From Escherichia phage I29, in the sequence record ON286975: 64,000 nucleotides of DNA, one strand, 5' to 3'. Position 1 is the first letter of the stretch; every line of letters starts with the position of its first letter. Both the position numbers and the translations under genes were made by a program. The notes under the pieces are model-generated. The model saw nothing but the letters and a program-made list of their open reading frames with translations. It had not been told where the DNA came from and ran no database searches. Positions 4,418-64,000 of this stretch are shown in pieces.

Positions 4418-4798
4418 CTAAAATGCAGTCCGAATCCAGACAAGGTTCTTATCTGCCCAATCATAGAGGCAAGTCATTGCACTATTGAATTGCTCACACG
4501 GAGGATAATCTTCTTCCATCTGACGCATAGCAGAGCCTTGTGGGTAAAGCTCCCGTGCTGCAAACCACGCGTCGTAGTCATCAACGGTGTCGAAGTAGTA
4601 TACAACATCCTCCAACTCAGGATCGAACTTTGAACTATCAGGATCCAGTTGTTCAGGGAACTTGGAGCGTAACTTGCCAGCCACAATACTTGCCAACTCG
4701 CTAACATGCTTATTGTCCCACTCCACTAGCTTCCCGTCTTCAGTGATGCGTCCTAACCACTGATCATGAAGGTCAACTGTTGTCTTCCACCGAGCCAT
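4418..4798 (-). CDS. hypothetical protein, 126 aa
   Basis: ORF in tightly packed minus-strand block; acidic, no motif recognised. Confidence 0.5.
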   Translation of the reverse strand: MARWKTTVDLHDQWLGRITEDGKLVEWDNKHVSELASIVAGKLRSKFPEQLDPDSSKFDPELEDVVYYFDTVDDYDAWFAARELYPQGSAMRQMEEDYPPCEQFNSAMTCLYDWADKNLVWIRTAF

Positions 4799-4800
4799 TA

Positions 4801-5058
4801 TCAGTCCACCTCTTCTTCTCGTTGTAGTTCAAGATACCCGTAGGTCTGGACATCTTCAAGGGTGTGGAACTCCCCATCTGCCGCTAATGCACGAACAACT
4901 TGGCACAAAACCTTATGAGGAACTTCATCCAGACCAAGATTCAGTGCAGGGAACACCTTATCTAAGTCAACAAAATAAATGAACTGGAGCTCACCAGCTT
5001 CAAAAGGTGTATCTTCAATAAACATCTTCTCGGCATTAGTCAAGATCTGCACTTTCAT
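4801..5058 (-). CDS. hypothetical protein, 85 aa
   Basis: ORF in tightly packed minus-strand block. Confidence 0.45.
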   Translation of the reverse strand: MKVQILTNAEKMFIEDTPFEAGELQFIYFVDLDKVFPALNLGLDEVPHKVLCQVVRALAADGEFHTLEDVQTYGYLELQREEEVD

Positions 5059-56210: not shown

Positions 56211-57767
56211 TTAATTTTCCATGTTGGATATGGAATTATCTCTGGTTGATGATATCTTAGAAGTGCCGTTGCCAGTGGATCCTGCAGCCATTCCATCACC
56301 AGCTCTACTGATGTCCTGGCCCAAGAGCTTCATCAGCTCTTCCTGATCCATGTCCTCGTCAAATCTTTCATCAAACCCGCCTACTTCAAGAATCTTATTA
56401 ATTACTGCAGGAGTTTTTGGCAAGTAACCTACAGCACCGATCCTCTGGACAAACTTGGAGAAGCTCTCCATATCCACTTCTTCAATCAGACCAGGTTTCA
56501 GTTTAGGCATATCATCATCTTCAAGGATGATACCATTCAATGCCAGAAGCTGTGGAATAAGATCCTTATTGAAGGCTTCAGTGATAATATCTATATCACG
56601 CTGAACAAAATGACCATGGATAGACTGTTTTGACTCAGACAGAGAGAAGGATCCAACGTTATCGTTACCGAGGTTAATAAAGCCAGCACCGAAACGGTCA
56701 AGAATCGCCTTCTTACGGGCATCAATCAAATCTTTAGTGGAATACTGCTTACCCATACCGTCAACCCCCTTCAGGGTCATGGAGTAAAGCTCTTTACCAG
56801 ACTTATCTCTATCAGACGGAAGTATAAAGAAACTTTGCTCACCACTATGGGCGTTTGCTGCGTCAAGCATAAGGTCTGCAACCATTCTCCCTTCCATTGA
56901 ATTCGGGTCAATGCTGGCCTTGTTCAAAATATTGGAAGGAATTTTCAGCTCAAGCACACCACCAAGGTCTTTGGAACAGCCAACAACCTCAAGGTTTTCA
57001 ATCAGAACTTTCTCACGGAAAGATCTGTAGCAACCTATCATAGGTGACACACCTGCAGGGTTAGATTCTGTTCCTGACAGGGTCATGAGCATAAGCTTTT
57101 TAGCAGGGATGAAAATTTCAGGCTCATTAAAGCCTTTTGAAGGCATTGCAGCAAGAGGTCCAGCCCAGCGTGCATTCTGAGTGTTTAGAAATGCATTAGG
57201 TGACTGATAAATACCTGTCAGTGTTCTGCTATTCTTATCAAAAACAAACGGCTCTGATCTGGACAGGCTGGCCTGAGGCCGGAATGCAATTTTATCGATA
57301 AGAAGCATCCCGGCATATTTACCTTCTTTCTCTCTGCGGTATACTTTCTCAAACAGTGAAAAACCATACTCGTTAAAGGTAGCTGCGCTTCTTGCAATAT
57401 CTCGAAGAGTTTGTTGGTTTGCCAAATTACGCAAAGAATACTCTATAAGCTCGGCAGCTTTCTTAGAGTCTTCACTTTTAACATTATAAAGGATCTTAAA
57501 ATCATTGAATGCTTTCGTGATGAAAACATATTTTGTATCTAAGGCAGTAGCAACTGTGGAATCACATTTCATAGTCTCCACTGTGGCAATCAGCTGAGGC
57601 CAACGCAATTCCTCAACCATCATAGATTGCGATTCTGCCATAATTTGGGAAAGTGCGCCAGAACCGATCTCACTCATACGAACATTATGAGTTGGTGCGC
57701 CTGCGTTCCCAGATTTATTCACAGTTTTGGCTGTGGCGTTGTGTTTCCTGCGGTTCTTTTTGGACAC
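56211..57767 (-). CDS. portal protein
   Basis: 518-aa ORF (GTG start) immediately downstream of large terminase gene. Confidence 0.6.
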   Translation of the reverse strand: MSKKNRRKHNATAKTVNKSGNAGAPTHNVRMSEIGSGALSQIMAESQSMMVEELRWPQLIATVETMKCDSTVATALDTKYVFITKAFNDFKILYNVKSEDSKKAAELIEYSLRNLANQQTLRDIARSAATFNEYGFSLFEKVYRREKEGKYAGMLLIDKIAFRPQASLSRSEPFVFDKNSRTLTGIYQSPNAFLNTQNARWAGPLAAMPSKGFNEPEIFIPAKKLMLMTLSGTESNPAGVSPMIGCYRSFREKVLIENLEVVGCSKDLGGVLELKIPSNILNKASIDPNSMEGRMVADLMLDAANAHSGEQSFFILPSDRDKSGKELYSMTLKGVDGMGKQYSTKDLIDARKKAILDRFGAGFINLGNDNVGSFSLSESKQSIHGHFVQRDIDIITEAFNKDLIPQLLALNGIILEDDDMPKLKPGLIEEVDMESFSKFVQRIGAVGYLPKTPAVINKILEVGGFDERFDEDMDQEELMKLLGQDISRAGDGMAAGSTGNGTSKISSTRDNSISNMEN

Positions 57768-57780
57768 AAGCTTTACCCCT

Positions 57781-57818
57781 CAAAACAGTATAACAAAATA
57801 GCCCTCGTCAGAGGGCTA
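57781..57818 (-). terminator. intrinsic terminator-like hairpin
   Basis: Minus-strand UAGCCCUC-UGAC-GAGGGCUA followed by UUUUGUUAUACUGUUUUG, between terminase and portal genes. Confidence 0.45.
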
Positions 57819-57867
57819 GTATCTCCAATTACTTTATTGTACCACATCTAATTAAGATTGGCAACAC

Positions 57868-59415
57868 TTAGATAAAACGCTTGAACATAGAAGGTGATGA
57901 GATTGATGGAATCACACAAGGAAGTGCTACCTCCTCTTTCTCTAGGAAATTAATCGCAGAAGCTACACAGTCGGCCCAGTCGTCTTTTCTGTTAAATGTT
58001 GATCTTTCCCCGTTGAATTTTTCAAGTTCAGTCAGAAATGCTTCCAGAGTATCAGGATGGAAACTGGATTTTACAATCCTCACCATTCCTTGTTGGGCAA
58101 GATTGGCAAAAGGTGAGAACCTTGTCAGTTTAGACTTGTTGGAAGGCATTGGGTCTTCTTCAACCCTGAACCCTTCGGCAAGCAAGGATCTGGAGGAGGT
58201 TAAGAACTCACTCTTACCTGCCTGCCCTGGGTCCACAGAGAAGACGATTATGCAATCATCACCATCGAACTGCGCCTGTTTCCTGATGATCACATCTCGT
58301 TCACCAGCCTTTTTACAGAACTTGCCTTCCAGACCTGTGGAATACCTCCCGTCATCCACGTTCTCAGGACAATAATCACCGGACAGGTAATAAAAGCCGT
58401 CGCTATCTTTACTTACCTTAATACTGGCAGTAAAGTCAGGAAATTTATTACCGGAAGTTCTCTCGGTTCCTGCCTTATCCCATGCCCTGCAAGATACTGA
58501 CCCAAGAGGTACTCTATCGGCATCACGAAGGAAAGATCTTTGAAAATAGTTTGCACCCTCAGGCTTTGCAAACCAGTTACCATGGAGAAGCTGAGCTTTT
58601 TCCAGCTCTGGTAGACCTTCGAGGAAAGCAAGGTATTCTGGGTTGTCTCTCAAACAGACAGGATTATCGAATATTGTTGCGCCTATGAACGAGAATGACA
58701 ACGGTCTTGGCTTGATCTCTACGCCAAGTCCGTTAACCGTGGTGTATTTCTCTATCAACTCTTCTTTAGAGTCTCCCCAGATAAATTCACCGTCGCGTCG
58801 GATAAAATATCTTTTCTTACCGCATTTCTCCGGATCTGGATACCCTTCATCGTCCAACCACCATCTAACCAGTTTGGCAAGCATGTGTTCTGAATCGGGG
58901 TTACAGCTGATAACCATTCTTGATGGATACTTTGACTGAGATCGCAGACGAGACATCAGATAGTCTATCTGCTCCCATTCGAACTGCGTGCCCTCATCGA
59001 AGCAAACCATGGTGTACTCAAGCCCCTGATGGTTAAGCTTATCTTGTACATACTCCATATGGCAGTATTTTACAACAGCTCCCTTTTTGCTTCTATCCCA
59101 CTTACCAGTGTTCGGATCAAACCGTGGAAAAATGAACTTATGATCCTTCTCTCTGAACTTTGGCTTAATGTTTTCAGGCAGATCACTGTAAATAGCTACT
59201 GCTTTAGGCCATAGTCCACCCTCACCTTCCAACTGTGGGGTTGTTCTTCGGAACATAACCACAGAGCTGTGGGGGTCATCAATAATTTTAAGTGGCATCA
59301 ACTGCAAGAGGAACGACTTGCCAGACCCTGCGGCACCGCCGATTACCAAAATATCTGCATCGTTTTCTAGGATCATCTTCTGCTTTTCAGAACACGGTCC
59401 GTAAATCTTAGACAT
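57868..59415 (-). CDS. terminase large subunit
   Basis: Walker A ILVIGGAAGSGKS near N-terminus; 515 aa; upstream of portal. Confidence 0.8.
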   Translation of the reverse strand: MSKIYGPCSEKQKMILENDADILVIGGAAGSGKSFLLQLMPLKIIDDPHSSVVMFRRTTPQLEGEGGLWPKAVAIYSDLPENIKPKFREKDHKFIFPRFDPNTGKWDRSKKGAVVKYCHMEYVQDKLNHQGLEYTMVCFDEGTQFEWEQIDYLMSRLRSQSKYPSRMVISCNPDSEHMLAKLVRWWLDDEGYPDPEKCGKKRYFIRRDGEFIWGDSKEELIEKYTTVNGLGVEIKPRPLSFSFIGATIFDNPVCLRDNPEYLAFLEGLPELEKAQLLHGNWFAKPEGANYFQRSFLRDADRVPLGSVSCRAWDKAGTERTSGNKFPDFTASIKVSKDSDGFYYLSGDYCPENVDDGRYSTGLEGKFCKKAGERDVIIRKQAQFDGDDCIIVFSVDPGQAGKSEFLTSSRSLLAEGFRVEEDPMPSNKSKLTRFSPFANLAQQGMVRIVKSSFHPDTLEAFLTELEKFNGERSTFNRKDDWADCVASAINFLEKEEVALPCVIPSISSPSMFKRFI

Positions 59416-60518: not shown

Positions 60519-60595
60519 TGGTCTCCACGGAGTGATTCGAACACTCGACCTCCTGATCCCAAATCAGGCGCTCTACCAAGCTGAGCTACGCGGAG
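60519..60595 (-). tRNA. tRNA-Pro (anticodon UGG)
   Basis: Cloverleaf read by eye on minus strand: 7-bp acceptor, T-loop TTCGAAT, anticodon loop UUUGGGA, CCA encoded. Confidence 0.8.
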
Positions 60596-60606
60596 TATTT
60601 ATTATT

Positions 60607-60681
60607 TGGTGGCCCTGGGTGGAATTGAACCACCGTCTGGCGATTATGAGTCGCTTGCTTGAACCTTCCAGCTACAGGGCC
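60607..60681 (-). tRNA. tRNA-Met (anticodon CAU; elongator or Ile2 not resolved)
   Basis: Cloverleaf on minus strand; anticodon loop CUCAUAA; CCA encoded. Confidence 0.75.
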
Positions 60682-60682
60682 A

Positions 60683-60758
60683 TGGTGCTGATGGCAGGAC
60701 TTGAACCTGCAACCTATTGATTACAAATCAATTGCACTACCAATTGTGCTACATCAGC
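60683..60758 (-). tRNA. tRNA-Thr (anticodon UGU)
   Basis: Cloverleaf on minus strand; D-stem GCAC/GTGC, anticodon loop UUUGUAA; CCA encoded. Confidence 0.8.
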
Positions 60759-60763
60759 AAAAA

Positions 60764-60862
60764 GGTGCTAGGTGATGGAATCGAACCACCTATGTATTCA
60801 ACGACTACCTCGTCTATTTTCAGGATTAAAAATCCTCGCCCTTGCCAAAGGGCTTACCTAGC
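60764..60862 (-). tRNA. atypical tRNA-like gene (possible anticodon UUU, not resolved)
   Basis: Good acceptor stem, D arm and T arm, but 30-nt insert between anticodon arm and T arm; CCA not encoded. Confidence 0.4.
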
Positions 60863-60960
60863 TCAGTATGTTGACCATGTTGCTAGTCGGCGATGACGAC
60901 TGTAACATTTGATAATCCGGTTCTGCTTCCGGCTTTCGCTTAATTACAAGGTCAACAATA

Positions 60961-61051
60961 TGGCTGAGGGTAATGGAATCGAACCATCATCAAGTCATCC
61001 TCAACGGGACGGTTTTCAAGACCGCTTGAGCACCATTGCTCCCTACCCTCA
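60961..61051 (-). tRNA. tRNA-Ser (anticodon UGA)
   Basis: Class II cloverleaf with long variable arm; anticodon loop CUUGAAA; G73 and CCA encoded. Confidence 0.75.
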
Positions 61052-61165
61052 TTTATAAACAATACTGATAATGACACTGATTTTCGAGCAGTTAGTGACT
61101 AGTATAAACGACGATAAATATCAATGCCATTATCTGTATGATTTATGCATTTAAAACTATAAATT

Positions 61166-61252
61166 TGGTGGGGAGTGGTGGAGTCGAACCACCCGAGTCG
61201 CAATGACAATAGATTTACAGTCTACACCGCTACCCCTACGGGATAACTCCCC
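61166..61252 (-). tRNA. tRNA-Tyr (anticodon GUA)
   Basis: Class II cloverleaf; anticodon loop CUGUAAA; 15-nt variable arm; CCA encoded. Confidence 0.8.
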
Positions 61253-61256
61253 AATT

Positions 61257-61331
61257 TGGCACCCCGTACTGGACTCGAACCAGTGTCAACGGCTTAGAAG
61301 GCCGCTGCTTTATCCACTAAGCTAACAGGGC
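61257..61331 (-). tRNA. tRNA-Arg (anticodon UCU)
   Basis: Cloverleaf on minus strand; anticodon loop CUUCUAA; acceptor stem with two G-U pairs; CCA encoded. Confidence 0.75.
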
Positions 61332-61427: not shown

Positions 61428-61766
61428 TTAGCTATTGCTAACAGGTTGTATTTCTGTGGTAAATGGCATAAAAGGTGCTGGTTTTTCAGCCTCTTCTACT
61501 ACCACCTCTTCCTCTTCACCAAACATCTCATCATATTCTTCCTGCATTCGGTCTGCCTTATCAAGAACATACTCTGCAATGCTTTGACGAATATTTTGTT
61601 TGGTTTTCGGGTCCAACATCAGCTCTCTTAAAACTTTGTGAGCTTCTGGAACCATCGCTATAAAAGATTCCTTCATATCAAGGATGTTCTTCTCTAGCTG
61701 AATGGCGTTGGACTCCTCTTTCAGAGGTCTGCCTCTACGGCGACGCTTTTTAGTTGTATCCGCCAT
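61428..61766 (-). CDS. small basic protein with AT-hook-like motif
   Basis: ATG 61766 with GGAGG SD (ORF-track start 61886 lies in non-coding DNA); N-terminal KKRRRRGRPLK; acidic C-terminus. Confidence 0.5.
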   Translation of the reverse strand: MADTTKKRRRRGRPLKEESNAIQLEKNILDMKESFIAMVPEAHKVLRELMLDPKTKQNIRQSIAEYVLDKADRMQEEYDEMFGEEEEVVVEEAEKPAPFMPFTTEIQPVSNS

Positions 61767-61777
61767 GTTTCCTCCAT

Positions 61778-61789
61778 TATCACGTGATA
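61778..61789 (-). promoter_or_regulatory. perfect 12-bp palindrome TATCACGTGATA (operator-like)
   Basis: Between the -10 element and the SD of the 61766 gene, around the predicted transcription start. Confidence 0.4.
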
Positions 61790-61794
61790 GGTGG

Positions 61795-61823
61795 ATTTTA
61801 TCATAGCAAATACTGATTGTCAA
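61795..61823 (-). promoter_or_regulatory. near-consensus sigma70 promoter
   Basis: Minus strand TTGACA (61818-61823), 17-nt spacer ending in TGA, TAAAAT (61795-61800); upstream of AT-hook gene and the tRNA cluster. Confidence 0.6.
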
Positions 61824-62110
61824 GTTCGCCGCAGGGTGGTATTCCCTGCGACTTGTCCAGCGTCCTGGACCAGAAAGACCCAACAAGTGGGTTACCAGAG
61901 CCCATTACCGCACTTTGGCTCGACCTTATTACAGGTTGGCTGGGGTCACATCGTCATGTGCTGGCTGCCCCTACCATTTTAAGTGTGGTGCACTATCAAG
62001 CCCTCTAAGGGGAACTCAGCCTTCTCCGAACCCTGTTTCAAAGCATCCGGAGATAAAGCCATCAAATTCATCTTTAAATTGGATATTCATCATGATACAC
62101 GAAAACAACC

Positions 62111-62353
62111 TCATTGTAAAGCACAAATAAATAAAACATACTTAATTTGTTTGTTATCAGGCTCAGGGTAGAAGTAGAAGATCTTGCTATCACCGATCTG
62201 AACACCACCATCCCAACAGCATAGCCCATAACCCGTATTCATACAAGCTAAGTCGTTGGCAAAATCTATTGCATCATCCAGTGCACGAAATTCACCTTCA
62301 TCTTCTAAATAATCCTCATTCATGGAACGAAAAACGAGCTTAACCTTAAACAT
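62111..62353 (-). CDS. hypothetical protein, 80 aa
   Basis: ORF, acidic, several Cys. Confidence 0.45.
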   Translation of the reverse strand: MFKVKLVFRSMNEDYLEDEGEFRALDDAIDFANDLACMNTGYGLCCWDGGVQIGDSKIFYFYPEPDNKQIKYVLFICALQ

Positions 62354-63207: not shown

Positions 63208-63711
63208 AGCTGCCTCCTCTTCAAGTTATAGAAAAACTAACTGTATCGCTTTGTAACGAGCTTTTCTATCAAACTGGTGCGATTGCATTACCTGGTATAG
63301 TTTATATAGCTGTGGAGCGATTTAGGGGCCTTCTTGTCAGTTTCCACACATAAACTTCATCCAAGCTCGCGCGGGAGACTCTCAACCGACTCCTTACGGC
63401 GCTGGCAAGCTTTCGTCGGTGGTCCACATCAGTGCTCGGCCTTTGGCCTGCGCTATCGCTTCGCTCCCACACATGTTAACAGACCTGTATGTATGAACTT
63501 CTGTTATTGTGTGCACCAAAGAGGCCCGGCATCTCGCCCCTCGTAGGCGAGTGCCAATGAAGGGCCGACACTGCCCATAGTAAGTAATAAATTTAAAACA
63601 TGGTACTTAGGATCTAGTATATTCTACATAAGTTAAGTATATGTACTTAGTACCATAAGTACTAGATCTTTTATTTTTTTATTATTTAGTTATTTTAGTT
63701 ATATTCTTTAT

Positions 63712-63794
63712 GTGTCCGTATCACGGACAGCTAGTGTCCGTATTACGGGCAGATGTGTCCGCGTGACGGACAGTAGTGTCCGTATCACGGACAG
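63712..63794. repeat. four tandem 19-bp palindromic sites GTGTCCGTATCACGGACAG
   Basis: Units at 63712, 63734, 63755, 63776, spaced 21-22 bp; each a 7-3-7 dyad TGTCCGT-N3-ACGGACA; units 1 and 4 identical; degenerate fifth copy near 63801. Confidence 0.85.
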
Positions 63795-64000
63795 TTAATA
63801 GTATCCGTTCCATGGCGAACATAAAACATACGAATCCTTATAGTACAGATATTTAAGTTTTTACTGGTCTAACCAGTTGTTGACATCCGAATAACTTCTT
63901 CTGGTGGCAAAACTTTGGAAAATGTGCATCTTTTACCTCTCCCTTGTGTGGATGTTTCAACCACTCCTGCACATTCTAAAGTTTTAACGCACGCTGCTGC

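Follow-up and report, generated by a model that had tools for sequence, protein, structure and literature searches.

A Three-Way-Junction RNA Motif Recurs in Intergenic Regions of Unrelated Enterobacterales Phages, Including the rV5-Like Phage I29

RESULTS

A structured RNA lies between ORF75 and ORF74

A 64,000-nucleotide (nt) stretch of Escherichia phage I29 (sequence record ON286975; hereafter the window) contains a 344-bp gap (61767-62110) between the minus-strand open reading frames (ORFs) ORF75 (62111-62353) and ORF74 (61428-61766). Within the minus-strand RNA of this gap we identified a 38-nt three-way-junction core whose sequence recurs almost unchanged in otherwise unrelated phages. 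The motif is very probably a functional structured RNA and appears to represent an uncatalogued RNA family of virulent Enterobacterales phages; we tentatively favor a role as a stable small RNA acting in trans as a decoy or antidote. The original prediction for this stretch, made from the letters alone, was correct that the gap exists and is GC-rich (GC fraction of 0.57 at 61825-61974 and 0.53 at 61900-62049, versus 0.32 to 0.45 in the flanks, in 150-nt windows). Its suggestion of a small RNA or a long 3′ untranslated region (UTR) with structures also held up: the minus-strand RNA is conserved in sequence and structure and has a covarying closing stem. Folding of the minus-strand RNA of the gap yielded a z score of −2.59, with none of 100 shuffled sequences equally stable, and the plus-strand fold was weaker (z = −1.77).

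The core (ACCUGUAAUAAGGUCGAGCCAAAGUGCGGUAA; 61939-61902, minus strand) is closed by stem Pb, in which CCA (61939-61937) pairs with UGG (61904-61902). Inside it, Pc joins ACCU (61936-61933) to AGGU (61926-61923) across the loop GUAAUA, and Pd joins GCC (61919-61917) to G(U)GC (61913-61910) with an AAA triloop and a bulged U. The junction segments are CGA (Jcd; 61922-61920) and GGUAA (Jdb; 61909-61905). The family consensus reads ACCUGU-NNN-AAGGUC-N-R-GCC-(loop)-G(N)GC-GGUAA, to which 61936-61905 corresponds in the window, and the covariance model built for the family (R1) scored 64.4 bits at 61896-61943. R1 also matched 58568-58614 of the window (18 bits), a site within a terminase exon; this second match was rejected as chance.

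Evidence for folding comes foremost from Pb, which differs in sequence among lineages yet remains paired (CCA/UGG, CCCU/AGGG, UCCC/GGGG, CUGG-U/A-(G)-CCAG, CGCG/CGCG, CACU/AGUG, and others). Among 46 distinct sequences aligned with MAFFT, every one forms the first Pb pair, as AU in 22, UA in 11, GC in 5, UG in 5, and CG in 3. The Pb covariation score was 0.175, against 0.060 ± 0.010 in shuffled alignments, and none of 500 shuffles reached it. Mean Pb length with one bulge allowed was 4.06 bp, against 2.48 ± 0.30 bp when the 3′ flanks were permuted among lineages (maximum of 3.39 in 2,000 permutations). Pb thus shows helix covariation beyond relatedness, the generic feature of a structured RNA. 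By contrast, Pc (ACCU/AGGU with loop GURRNA) and Pd (GCC/G-N-GC with triloop and bulge) are invariant in sequence and therefore display no covariation. What support they have comes from variant copies and from a circularly permuted form of the motif. For Pd, its loop and bulge are variable spots of the core within Vequintavirus, some copies have a perfect GCC-N3/4-GGC hairpin (L139, L180, L184, and L024b, the second copy in L024), and in the copy of L023, GAGAC-CGC-GUCUC replaces the usual Pd. The permuted form was found in L090, L091, and L056 and reads 5′-AGGUC-core-GGUAA-GGGG-(80- to 100-nt insert)-CCC-ACCUA-3′, an arrangement that requires Pb and Pc to be helices within a single folded junction.

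When the 5′ strand of Pc and part of its 3′ strand were left free, a scan recovered chance matches and no real variant, and searches for further lineages with a perfect Pd likewise returned chance matches only. Complementarity of the Pc loop to the 3′ tail is suggestive of a pseudoknot in T4-like phages (UGUAA/UUACA, UGUGA/UCACA, CUGUA/UACAG); this pairing is absent in rV5, L136, and L180 and was omitted from the model. The helices tolerate G-U pairs, whose counterparts on the opposite strand would be C-A mismatches, and 1-nt indels occur within the conserved block in L180 and L156, which excludes a reading frame across the structured part.

In rV5-like phages, the core is embedded in a structured RNA body of ∼145 nt (62015-61872, minus strand) composed of a 5′ hairpin (CCCC/GGG), an invariant single strand, the hairpin Pa, the core, and a tail. 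The body is nearly invariant in seven rV5-like sequences, with changes limited to the 3-nt Pd loop, the 1-nt Pd bulge, and a bulge of 3 to 6 nt located 3′ of Pb. Pa (61971-61942, minus strand; GGGG-(CAGCCAG)-CACAU-GACG-AUGUG-A-CCCC) consists of an outer stem and an inner hairpin immediately 5′ of the core, and RNAalifold retains it in the rV5 lineage. By unscored inspection, a Pa hairpin of unrelated sequence precedes Pb in every lineage. It is two-tiered in most, with stems such as GGAAC/GUUCC in L017, GGGAA/UUCCC in T4-like phages, AGCGC/GCGCU in L180, and CCAACAA/UUGUUGG in L136. A single stem with a long loop takes its place in N4-like phages (GAGUG/CACUC or GAAUG/CAUUC) and 44-kb phages (GAGGG/CCCUC, GUAG/CUAC). 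That the Pc and Pd stems stay invariant despite the free divergence of Pa and Pb would suit a partner that recognizes specific bases, as would the constancy of the junction and its helices amid replaced surroundings.

The motif is widespread in phages of Enterobacterales and absent from bacterial genomes

A sensitive BLAST search with the 344-nt gap retrieved 987 phage records, 118 of which are full-length Vequintavirus copies. The remaining ∼870 match over ∼32 to 43 nt only (query positions ∼168 to 210), with 84 to 97% identity. They include T4-like Straboviridae infecting Escherichia, Shigella, Yersinia, Salmonella, Klebsiella, Citrobacter, and Proteus, T4 itself among them, the N4-like (Schitoviridae) Klebsiella phage Pylas, and the 44-kb coliphage EcoPhCCP1. 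Further lineages came from pattern scans of IMG/VR and metagenomes: L017 (a distant relative, represented by a metagenomic contig of 118 kb), L028, L136, L139, L156, L166, L180, L184, and L090/L091/L056. Some T4-like phages carry two diverged copies ∼110 nt apart.

Bacterial genomes gave a different picture. Among 185,579 bacterial and archaeal reference genomes (GTDB representatives) there were 15 chance matches, all inside coding sequence and none with the hairpin; the motif was not found in 5,426 E. coli genomes; and the sole match among plasmids (PLSDB) was a 137.6-kb rV5-like record. Its absence from these collections, that record aside, makes the motif phage specific.

The motif is co-oriented with its neighbors and frequently adjoins tRNA genes

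Without exception, the motif is on the transcribed strand and points in the same direction as the neighboring genes, and ARAGORN annotation of all motif-bearing loci placed the nearest tRNA gene in the same orientation as the motif in 28 of 28 cases. In 8 of ∼14 lineages, a tRNA gene lies 45 to 1,183 nt from the motif: rV5-like phages (574 nt), L017, N4-like phages, L180, L136, L184, L166, and L090/L091. None of 135 control loci (chance pattern matches in the same collections) had a tRNA within 1,200 nt. The available sequences of L056, L139, and L156 contain no tRNA gene. In L180, the motif follows the last of 10 tRNA genes by 45 nt and precedes a terminator, whereas in the 44-kb phages and L028 the endolysin gene precedes it and a strong terminator follows; the intrinsic terminators of L180, L028, and EcoPhCCP1 (L006) are located 30 to 110 nt downstream of it. 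In both L180 and the 44-kb phages, the motif is the last feature of its operon. No homologous neighbor protein was common to the lineages, and the cross-lineage matches obtained were spurious antisense ORFs over the motif itself.

In the T4 genome (locus L033, NC_000866), the motif is concealed by an annotation: at 4790-4913 of the locus (minus strand; ∼64790-64912 of the record), the annotated vs.8 coding sequence (CDS) starts 39 codons early and spans the motif. The vs.8 start used in RB3 (ATGAGAACATTT, preceded by the Shine-Dalgarno sequence AGAGAAGAA) is present in T4 as well, and the T4 extension is in frame only through a T4-specific duplication, cttatagag-cttatagag. Between motif and vs.8 start, T4-like phages also contain a hairpin, GCC-A(N)GGAA(N)-GGC (e.g., L004, 1560-1590), kept in all subclasses; with GGA in its loop just upstream of the Shine-Dalgarno sequence, it resembles a putative CsrA-type site.

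Two further loci harbor features of their own. In EcoPhCCP1 (1550-1655), a TTGACA-17-TACTTA promoter-like site ∼20 nt after the motif is followed by ∼70 nt with AAAUCACCUCCUGUU, which is similar to the 3′-terminal anti-Shine-Dalgarno sequence of 16S rRNA. A strong intrinsic terminator comes next, and the segment may be a separate small-RNA gene. In Pylas (L005), a 1-kb noncoding stretch after the tRNA cluster (1273-2290) contains the motif, an unannotated tRNA-like module (T-arm GCGGUUCGAUUCCGC; ∼1560-1660), and repeated CGUUGUG...CACAAC flanking stems. It also gave weak matches to permuted transfer-messenger RNA (tmRNA) or beta-tmRNA at 1917-2052. These lie away from the motif, over which ARAGORN called nothing, and a tmRNA identity was rejected.

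The motif matches no known RNA and shares traits with pseudo-ToxI

The original prediction had proposed an Rfam scan. Run with Rfam 15 (4,227 models, including tRNA, tmRNA, RNase P, 6S, Y RNA, ToxI, riboswitches, ribozymes, GOLLD, and ROOL), it matched no family in 61767-62110 at gathering thresholds and none at an E value of ≤5 on 2.7 kb. At an E value of ≤10 on 321 nt, it gave two noise matches only (9 to 15 bits versus thresholds of 50). Scans of the homologous loci in other phages returned nothing over the motif, and ARAGORN called seven tRNAs at 60519-61331 and no tRNA or tmRNA in the gap. In the literature searched, the motif sequence occurred in no paper, nor was there discussion of a small RNA upstream of vs.8 or in rV5. 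The motif may or may not be among the 10,006 unnamed candidate viral structured RNAs of a 2023 catalogue (PMC10690425). Two short resemblances, one to P12 of RNase P RNA (GUGCGGUAAG) and one, at the 5′ end of the rV5 RNA, to the E. coli type I-E CRISPR repeat (GAGUUCCCC), are identities of only 9 to 10 nt; the CRISPR-like 9-mer is absent in L017.

The closest parallel is pseudo-ToxI. Around 2012, Blower and colleagues reportedly described the pseudo-ToxI RNA of Pectobacterium phage phiTE as a mimic of the ToxI type III antitoxin by which phiTE escapes ToxIN. Pseudo-ToxI is presumed to be released by processing and to work in trans through protein binding. Like the motif, it is a nearly invariant module of ∼36 to 40 nt found in unrelated virulent Enterobacterales phages, in unannotated intergenic DNA and often in tRNA arrays. 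Unlike the motif, which is single copy and lacks such a counterpart in E. coli genomes, PLSDB plasmids, and GTDB representatives, ToxI has an almost identical bacterial or plasmid version arranged as tandem repeats beside toxN. Of the features of an antitoxin mimic, the short module spread over unrelated phage intergenic and tRNA regions is present, and near-identity to a bacterial antitoxin repeat was not found in those collections. Unannotated ToxI-like monomers of 36 to 39 nt turned up in ∼200 phage records from many families. In the T4-like Erwinia phage IT22, a monomer is placed exactly between tRNA-Ser and tRNA-Glu (L215, 1501-1539), and in Pectobacterium phage CB7 (Vequintavirinae) one follows tRNA-Tyr by 200 nt (L214, 3001-3064); pseudo-ToxI appears to extend far beyond phiTE.

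Other phage RNAs resemble the motif in part. T4 rnaC and rnaD (species 1 and 2) are likewise phage small RNAs of unassigned function; they are encoded together with tRNA genes, in the same orientation, and presumably owe their maturation to tRNA-processing enzymes. They have no sequence or motif similarity to it, and rnaC ends in a tRNA-like T-arm that the motif RNA lacks; the T4 copy of the motif lies 6 kb from rnaC and rnaD, upstream of vs.8. The studies of Weinberg and Breaker are said to have described GOLLD and ROOL as structured RNAs of phages and prophages, frequently beside tRNA genes. Both are 500 to 800 nt long and come mostly from Gram-positive and other hosts. Their Rfam models do not match the motif RNA, which is ∼120 to 150 nt with a 38-nt core.

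A trans-acting decoy or antidote is tentatively favored

We favor, with reservations, a stable trans-acting decoy or antidote because of four traits taken together: the constant junction, its solo movement between unrelated phages of one host order, its preference for tRNA operons, and the pseudo-ToxI precedent. The RNA would be released as a stable small RNA from its own promoter in L017 and as a 3′ UTR product in rV5 and the 44-kb phages or, alternatively, by tRNA-type processing from tRNA operons in N4-like phages, L180, and others. The sequence-invariant junction would form a high-affinity site for a conserved host or defense factor, act on it in trans, and serve as decoy or antidote in the manner of pseudo-ToxI. 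Since the bacterial counterpart, a defining feature of antitoxin mimics, is missing, our proposal is that the RNA works like such a mimic and not that it is a member of that class.

Several observations weigh against this proposal. All members of the family were recognized from DNA sequence, and a separate transcript is a prediction for each of them. Every T4-like phage has the motif in the 5′ UTR of vs.8, 60 to 80 nt before the start codon and 6 to 8 kb from the tRNA cluster, a position that would also fit a cis-acting role. The invariance of Pc and Pd is partly ascertainment, as both were fixed by the search patterns. Single-sequence minimum-free-energy folds recover the model only in part, and RNAalifold gives a competing fold for the rV5 lineage, in which GGGCUUG pairs with CGAGCC; this alternative clashes with Pd, lacks covariation, and was rejected. 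The searches revealed neither a binding partner nor a host RNA that the motif might mimic, and no ToxI similarity was seen in the window or in the motif loci examined. Apparent rRNA mimicry (GCGGUAAU of the 16S 530 loop; GUAACAAGGU of 16S 1497-1506; GUAAUA of 23S H44) was rejected as chance: when five motif variants were compared with the full rrn operon, 83 to 287 of 300 shuffles reached the observed score. Finally, no bacterial counterpart exists in the E. coli genomes, plasmids, or GTDB representatives searched; divergent ones in other genera are possible.

A ribozyme or RNA-processing signal and a cis-acting regulator are unlikely alternatives

We consider it unlikely that the junction is a self-cleaving ribozyme or RNA-processing signal that cuts polycistronic transcripts such as the tRNA operons or the ipIII/denV-vs.8 message. 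Like hammerhead, twister, and theta ribozymes, the motif combines a small conserved core with variable peripheral helices, resides in phage intergenic sites, and exists in a circularly permuted form, as hammerhead and twister do. HDV-like theta ribozymes, moreover, adjoin phage tRNAs (PMC10879173). The junction segments of 0 to 1, 3, and 5 nt correspond to the hammerhead topology class, and both the intergenic placement within operons next to tRNA genes and the paired diverged copies of some T4-like phages would suit cleavage or processing. Against this, none of the ribozyme covariance models matched, even at the most permissive Rfam setting. The Pc and Pd stems are conserved in sequence, whereas ribozyme stems normally covary, and no cleavage-site signature was recognized.

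Regulation in cis, through a riboswitch-like aptamer or through an attenuator, with junction folding that would set termination, read-through, or downstream translation, is doubtful to a similar degree. The uniform spacing from vs.8 in T4-like phages and the intrinsic terminators behind the motif in L180, L028, and L006 are in its favor, and in rV5 the 3′ strand of Pb (UGGG) could pair with the ACCCA arm of the terminator-like hairpin that follows. That candidate platform hairpin is deleted in phiWec189, however, with the core intact. The related downstream genes expected of a riboswitch are also missing: what follows differs across lineages (vs.8, ORF74 with its own promoter, tRNAs, or nothing), and the motif ends the operon in L180 and the 44-kb phages. 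Circular permutation is, besides, unusual for riboswitches.

A narrower version of the decoy proposal, which we rate as a rather long shot, casts the junction as a pared-down imitation of a class II tRNA (e.g., tRNA-Tyr), reduced to the core that comprises anticodon stem, D stem, and long variable arm. Virulent phages would carry it within or close to their tRNA arrays as a decoy for a tRNA-directed defense nuclease of the Septu/PtuAB, retron, or anticodon-nuclease kind. The idea builds on the CUGUAA sequence of the Pc loop and on Pd as a 3-bp arm with a 3-nt loop projecting from a coaxial Pb-Pc stack.

Generic 3′-UTR, terminator, or mRNA-stabilizing hairpins, with the cross-phage likeness reflecting a recently exchanged neutral fragment, are improbable. 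The two GC hairpins and the ACCCA/UGGGU stem do resemble ordinary end structures, GC stems that close a transcription unit, and the whole-gap fold z score is only −2.6. But only one of the three 3′ hairpins has even a weak U-rich run, and the conserved junction is left unexplained. Neutral exchange would not account for ∼32 nt that stay nearly invariant next to flanking stems that are replaced yet still pair, nor for persistence in at least 14 lineages or in permuted form; within Vequintavirus, moreover, the RNA is more conserved than neighboring codons. A DNA-level element (replication origin, packaging site, or protein operator), as the original prediction had also suggested for replication or packaging, can be set aside almost entirely. 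The sequence is GC- and palindrome-rich within an AT-rich genome, but the phages that carry the motif replicate and package their DNA by unrelated systems, and the motif itself is confined to the transcribed strand, shows strand-specific G-U pairs and wobble substitutions, and is single copy without iterons; a real operator-like array lies elsewhere (63712-63797). It is just as hard to credit that the whole gap is protein coding, as small ORFs or an N-terminal extension of ORF74. Although its 5′ 99 nt probably encode a peptide, some records start ORF74 at an upstream TTG (152 amino acids [aa]) or place small CDSs in the gap, and T4 vs.8 is annotated straight through the motif, the conserved block contains 1-nt indels, its conservation ends at stem boundaries, its sense frame with UAAUAA and GGUAA is closed by stop codons, and the T4 extension is lineage specific in a phage that retains the RB3-type start and Shine-Dalgarno sequence.

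Organization of the gap and its surroundings

A 1-kb query around the gap matched 120 phage records at 95 to 100% identity, all of them rV5-like Vequintavirus (some mislabeled as Campylobacter phage). The window is an rV5-like Vequintavirus sequence whose genes in this region lie on the minus strand; adding 1457 to a window coordinate gives that of the rV5 record. The minus-strand order is P75, ORF75, the gap, promoter P74, ORF74, a tRNA promoter (61418-61390), and seven tRNA genes (61331-60519). The gap, which the original prediction had described as upstream of the tRNA-operon promoter, is not directly so: it precedes P74 and ORF74, and the tRNA-operon promoter lies ∼400 nt further on. The gap itself is a composite of a micro-ORF, the structured RNA, two GC hairpins, and then a sigma-70 promoter and the 5′ UTR of ORF74.

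The stretch at 62114-62016 (minus strand) probably encodes a 32-aa peptide (MRLFSCIMMNIQFKDEFDGFISGCFETGFGEG) coupled to ORF75, whose stop codon overlaps the ATG of the micro-ORF (ATGA). It is annotated as a 99-nt CDS in slur16 and S127 and as a 111-nt CDS with a TTG start in EmilHeitz. Across codons 1 to 31, the alignment of seven rV5-like sequences contains four synonymous changes (TCG>TCA, GAA>GAG, GGG>GGA, TTC>TTT) and one nonsynonymous change (ATC>ATG), and the last codon varies freely (GGC, GAC, AGC, or GTC). The substitution counts are small, and because two of the synonymous changes also keep a hairpin, the evidence for coding is moderate. A tblastn search with the peptide matched 118 Vequintavirus records and none elsewhere, and L017 retains only MKDEFDGF* behind a good Shine-Dalgarno sequence. 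The earlier statement that the gap holds no convincing ORF accordingly probably fails for the first 99 nt and stands for the structured part, with its indels and in-frame stops; a short frame conserved in relatives, which had been named as grounds for abandoning a noncoding interpretation, is found only in those 99 nt.

A consensus scan detected a promoter-like site, TTTACA-17-TATCAT, with 10 of 12 matches at 62120-62092 (minus strand), within the end of ORF75 and the micro-ORF. Its −10 element is TATGAT in L084, and the rV5 authors annotate no promoter there; it is a possible candidate for an extra start point of the RNA. The 5′ end of the RNA was set by alignment to L017, where a perfect TTGACA-17-TATACT sigma-70 promoter immediately precedes the homologous RNA start, which would make the RNA an independent transcription unit in that lineage. 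In rV5, the RNA could be the 3′ UTR of the ORF75/micro-ORF transcript or could start at the weaker site at 62120-62092.

Three hairpins follow the core. The small hairpin ACCCA-CUUGU-UGGGU with the tail CUUUCU (61892-61872, minus strand) is a weak, terminator-like candidate for the 3′ end of the RNA and was picked up as such in the scan. Among the 3′ hairpins, only this one (61892-61878) qualifies, weakly, as a GC hairpin followed by a U-tract. A precise deletion removes it from phiWec189, which retains the core; it is therefore dispensable, and L017 has a different hairpin there. The other two, GUCCAG-GACG-CUGGAC (61870-61855, minus strand) and CGCAGGG-AAUACCA-CCCUGCG (61850-61830, minus strand), were read from the sequence and lack a U-tract. 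The original prediction had singled out this pair (CGCAGGG/CCCTGCG and GTCCAG/CTGGAC in DNA letters) at exactly these places. They are real, yet they form the least informative part of the gap; the comparative support lies at 61872-62015. In the hairpin at 61855-61870, an A>G change in S127, L052, and L158 turns a U-A into a U-G pair, which is tolerated only in a minus-strand RNA, and L017 keeps a hairpin (GCUGG...CCAGC) at this position. The hairpin at 61830-61850 varies only by a loop U>C and is absent in L017; it may be a transcript 3′-end or insulator structure. All three are best seen as 3′-end or insulator structures of the upstream transcript.

P74, the promoter assigned to ORF74 (61823-61795, minus strand; TTGACA-17-TAAAAT with a TG extension), matches 11 of 12 sigma-70 consensus positions, is annotated in rV5, and is conserved in L017 as TTGACA...TAAACT. 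Downstream of it, a hairpin read from the sequence in the ORF74 5′ UTR (61794-61771, minus strand; CCACCUAUCAC/GUGAUAAUGGAGG) can occlude the Shine-Dalgarno sequence, with CUCCA...UGGAG at the same position in L017; this predicted fold suggests translational control of ORF74.

Elsewhere in the window, a second GC-rich (0.57 to 0.58), apparently noncoding island lies at 63300-63585 (minus strand) between ORF77 and a GntR-like regulator gene, where rV5 annotates a GTG-start, 56-aa "ORF78." It is conserved in Vequintavirus only (88 to 100% identity), is more variable than the structured RNA, has a fold z score of −1.3, and gave no credible Rfam match (a subthreshold rli43 hit of 22 bits versus 100). 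At 63712-63797, beside the AT-rich segment 63590-63700, the palindrome TGTCCGTATCACGGACA occurs four times with a spacing of 21 to 22 bp, an arrangement suggestive of operators for the putative transcriptional regulator encoded next to it. Within the tRNA cluster, a 99-nt tRNA-like gene (60764-60862, minus strand; 35.5 bits with the Rfam tRNA model) has an unassignable ARAGORN anticodon, "atcc." It appears in other records as tRNA-Lys or tRNA-Stop(tta) and may be an intron-bearing, long-armed, or suppressor-type tRNA. The rV5 record assembles the terminase large-subunit gene (56570-59415, minus strand) from three pieces and has an HNH homing-endonuclease ORF within it.

DISCUSSION

The RNA has escaped annotation under a misplaced vs.8 start in T4 and, at times, under spurious small CDSs in rV5-like records. 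At the least, the present analysis corrects the starts of ORF74 and vs.8, flags dubious small ORFs, and adds a probable 32-aa micro-ORF, and the covariance model is supplied for annotating phage genomes. If real, the family would extend to ∼2% of deposited phage genomes, among them those of T4, of rV5-like therapeutic candidates, and of N4-like Klebsiella phages. Phage tRNA arrays are now viewed as anti-defense islands. Should the tRNA-mimic version prove true, the motif would constitute a new class of RNA-only anti-defense element, present even in T4. More generally, its constancy across phages, its absence from bacteria, and its siting in tRNA arrays point to a function that may be transplantable between phages and to a target that would be common to Enterobacterales.

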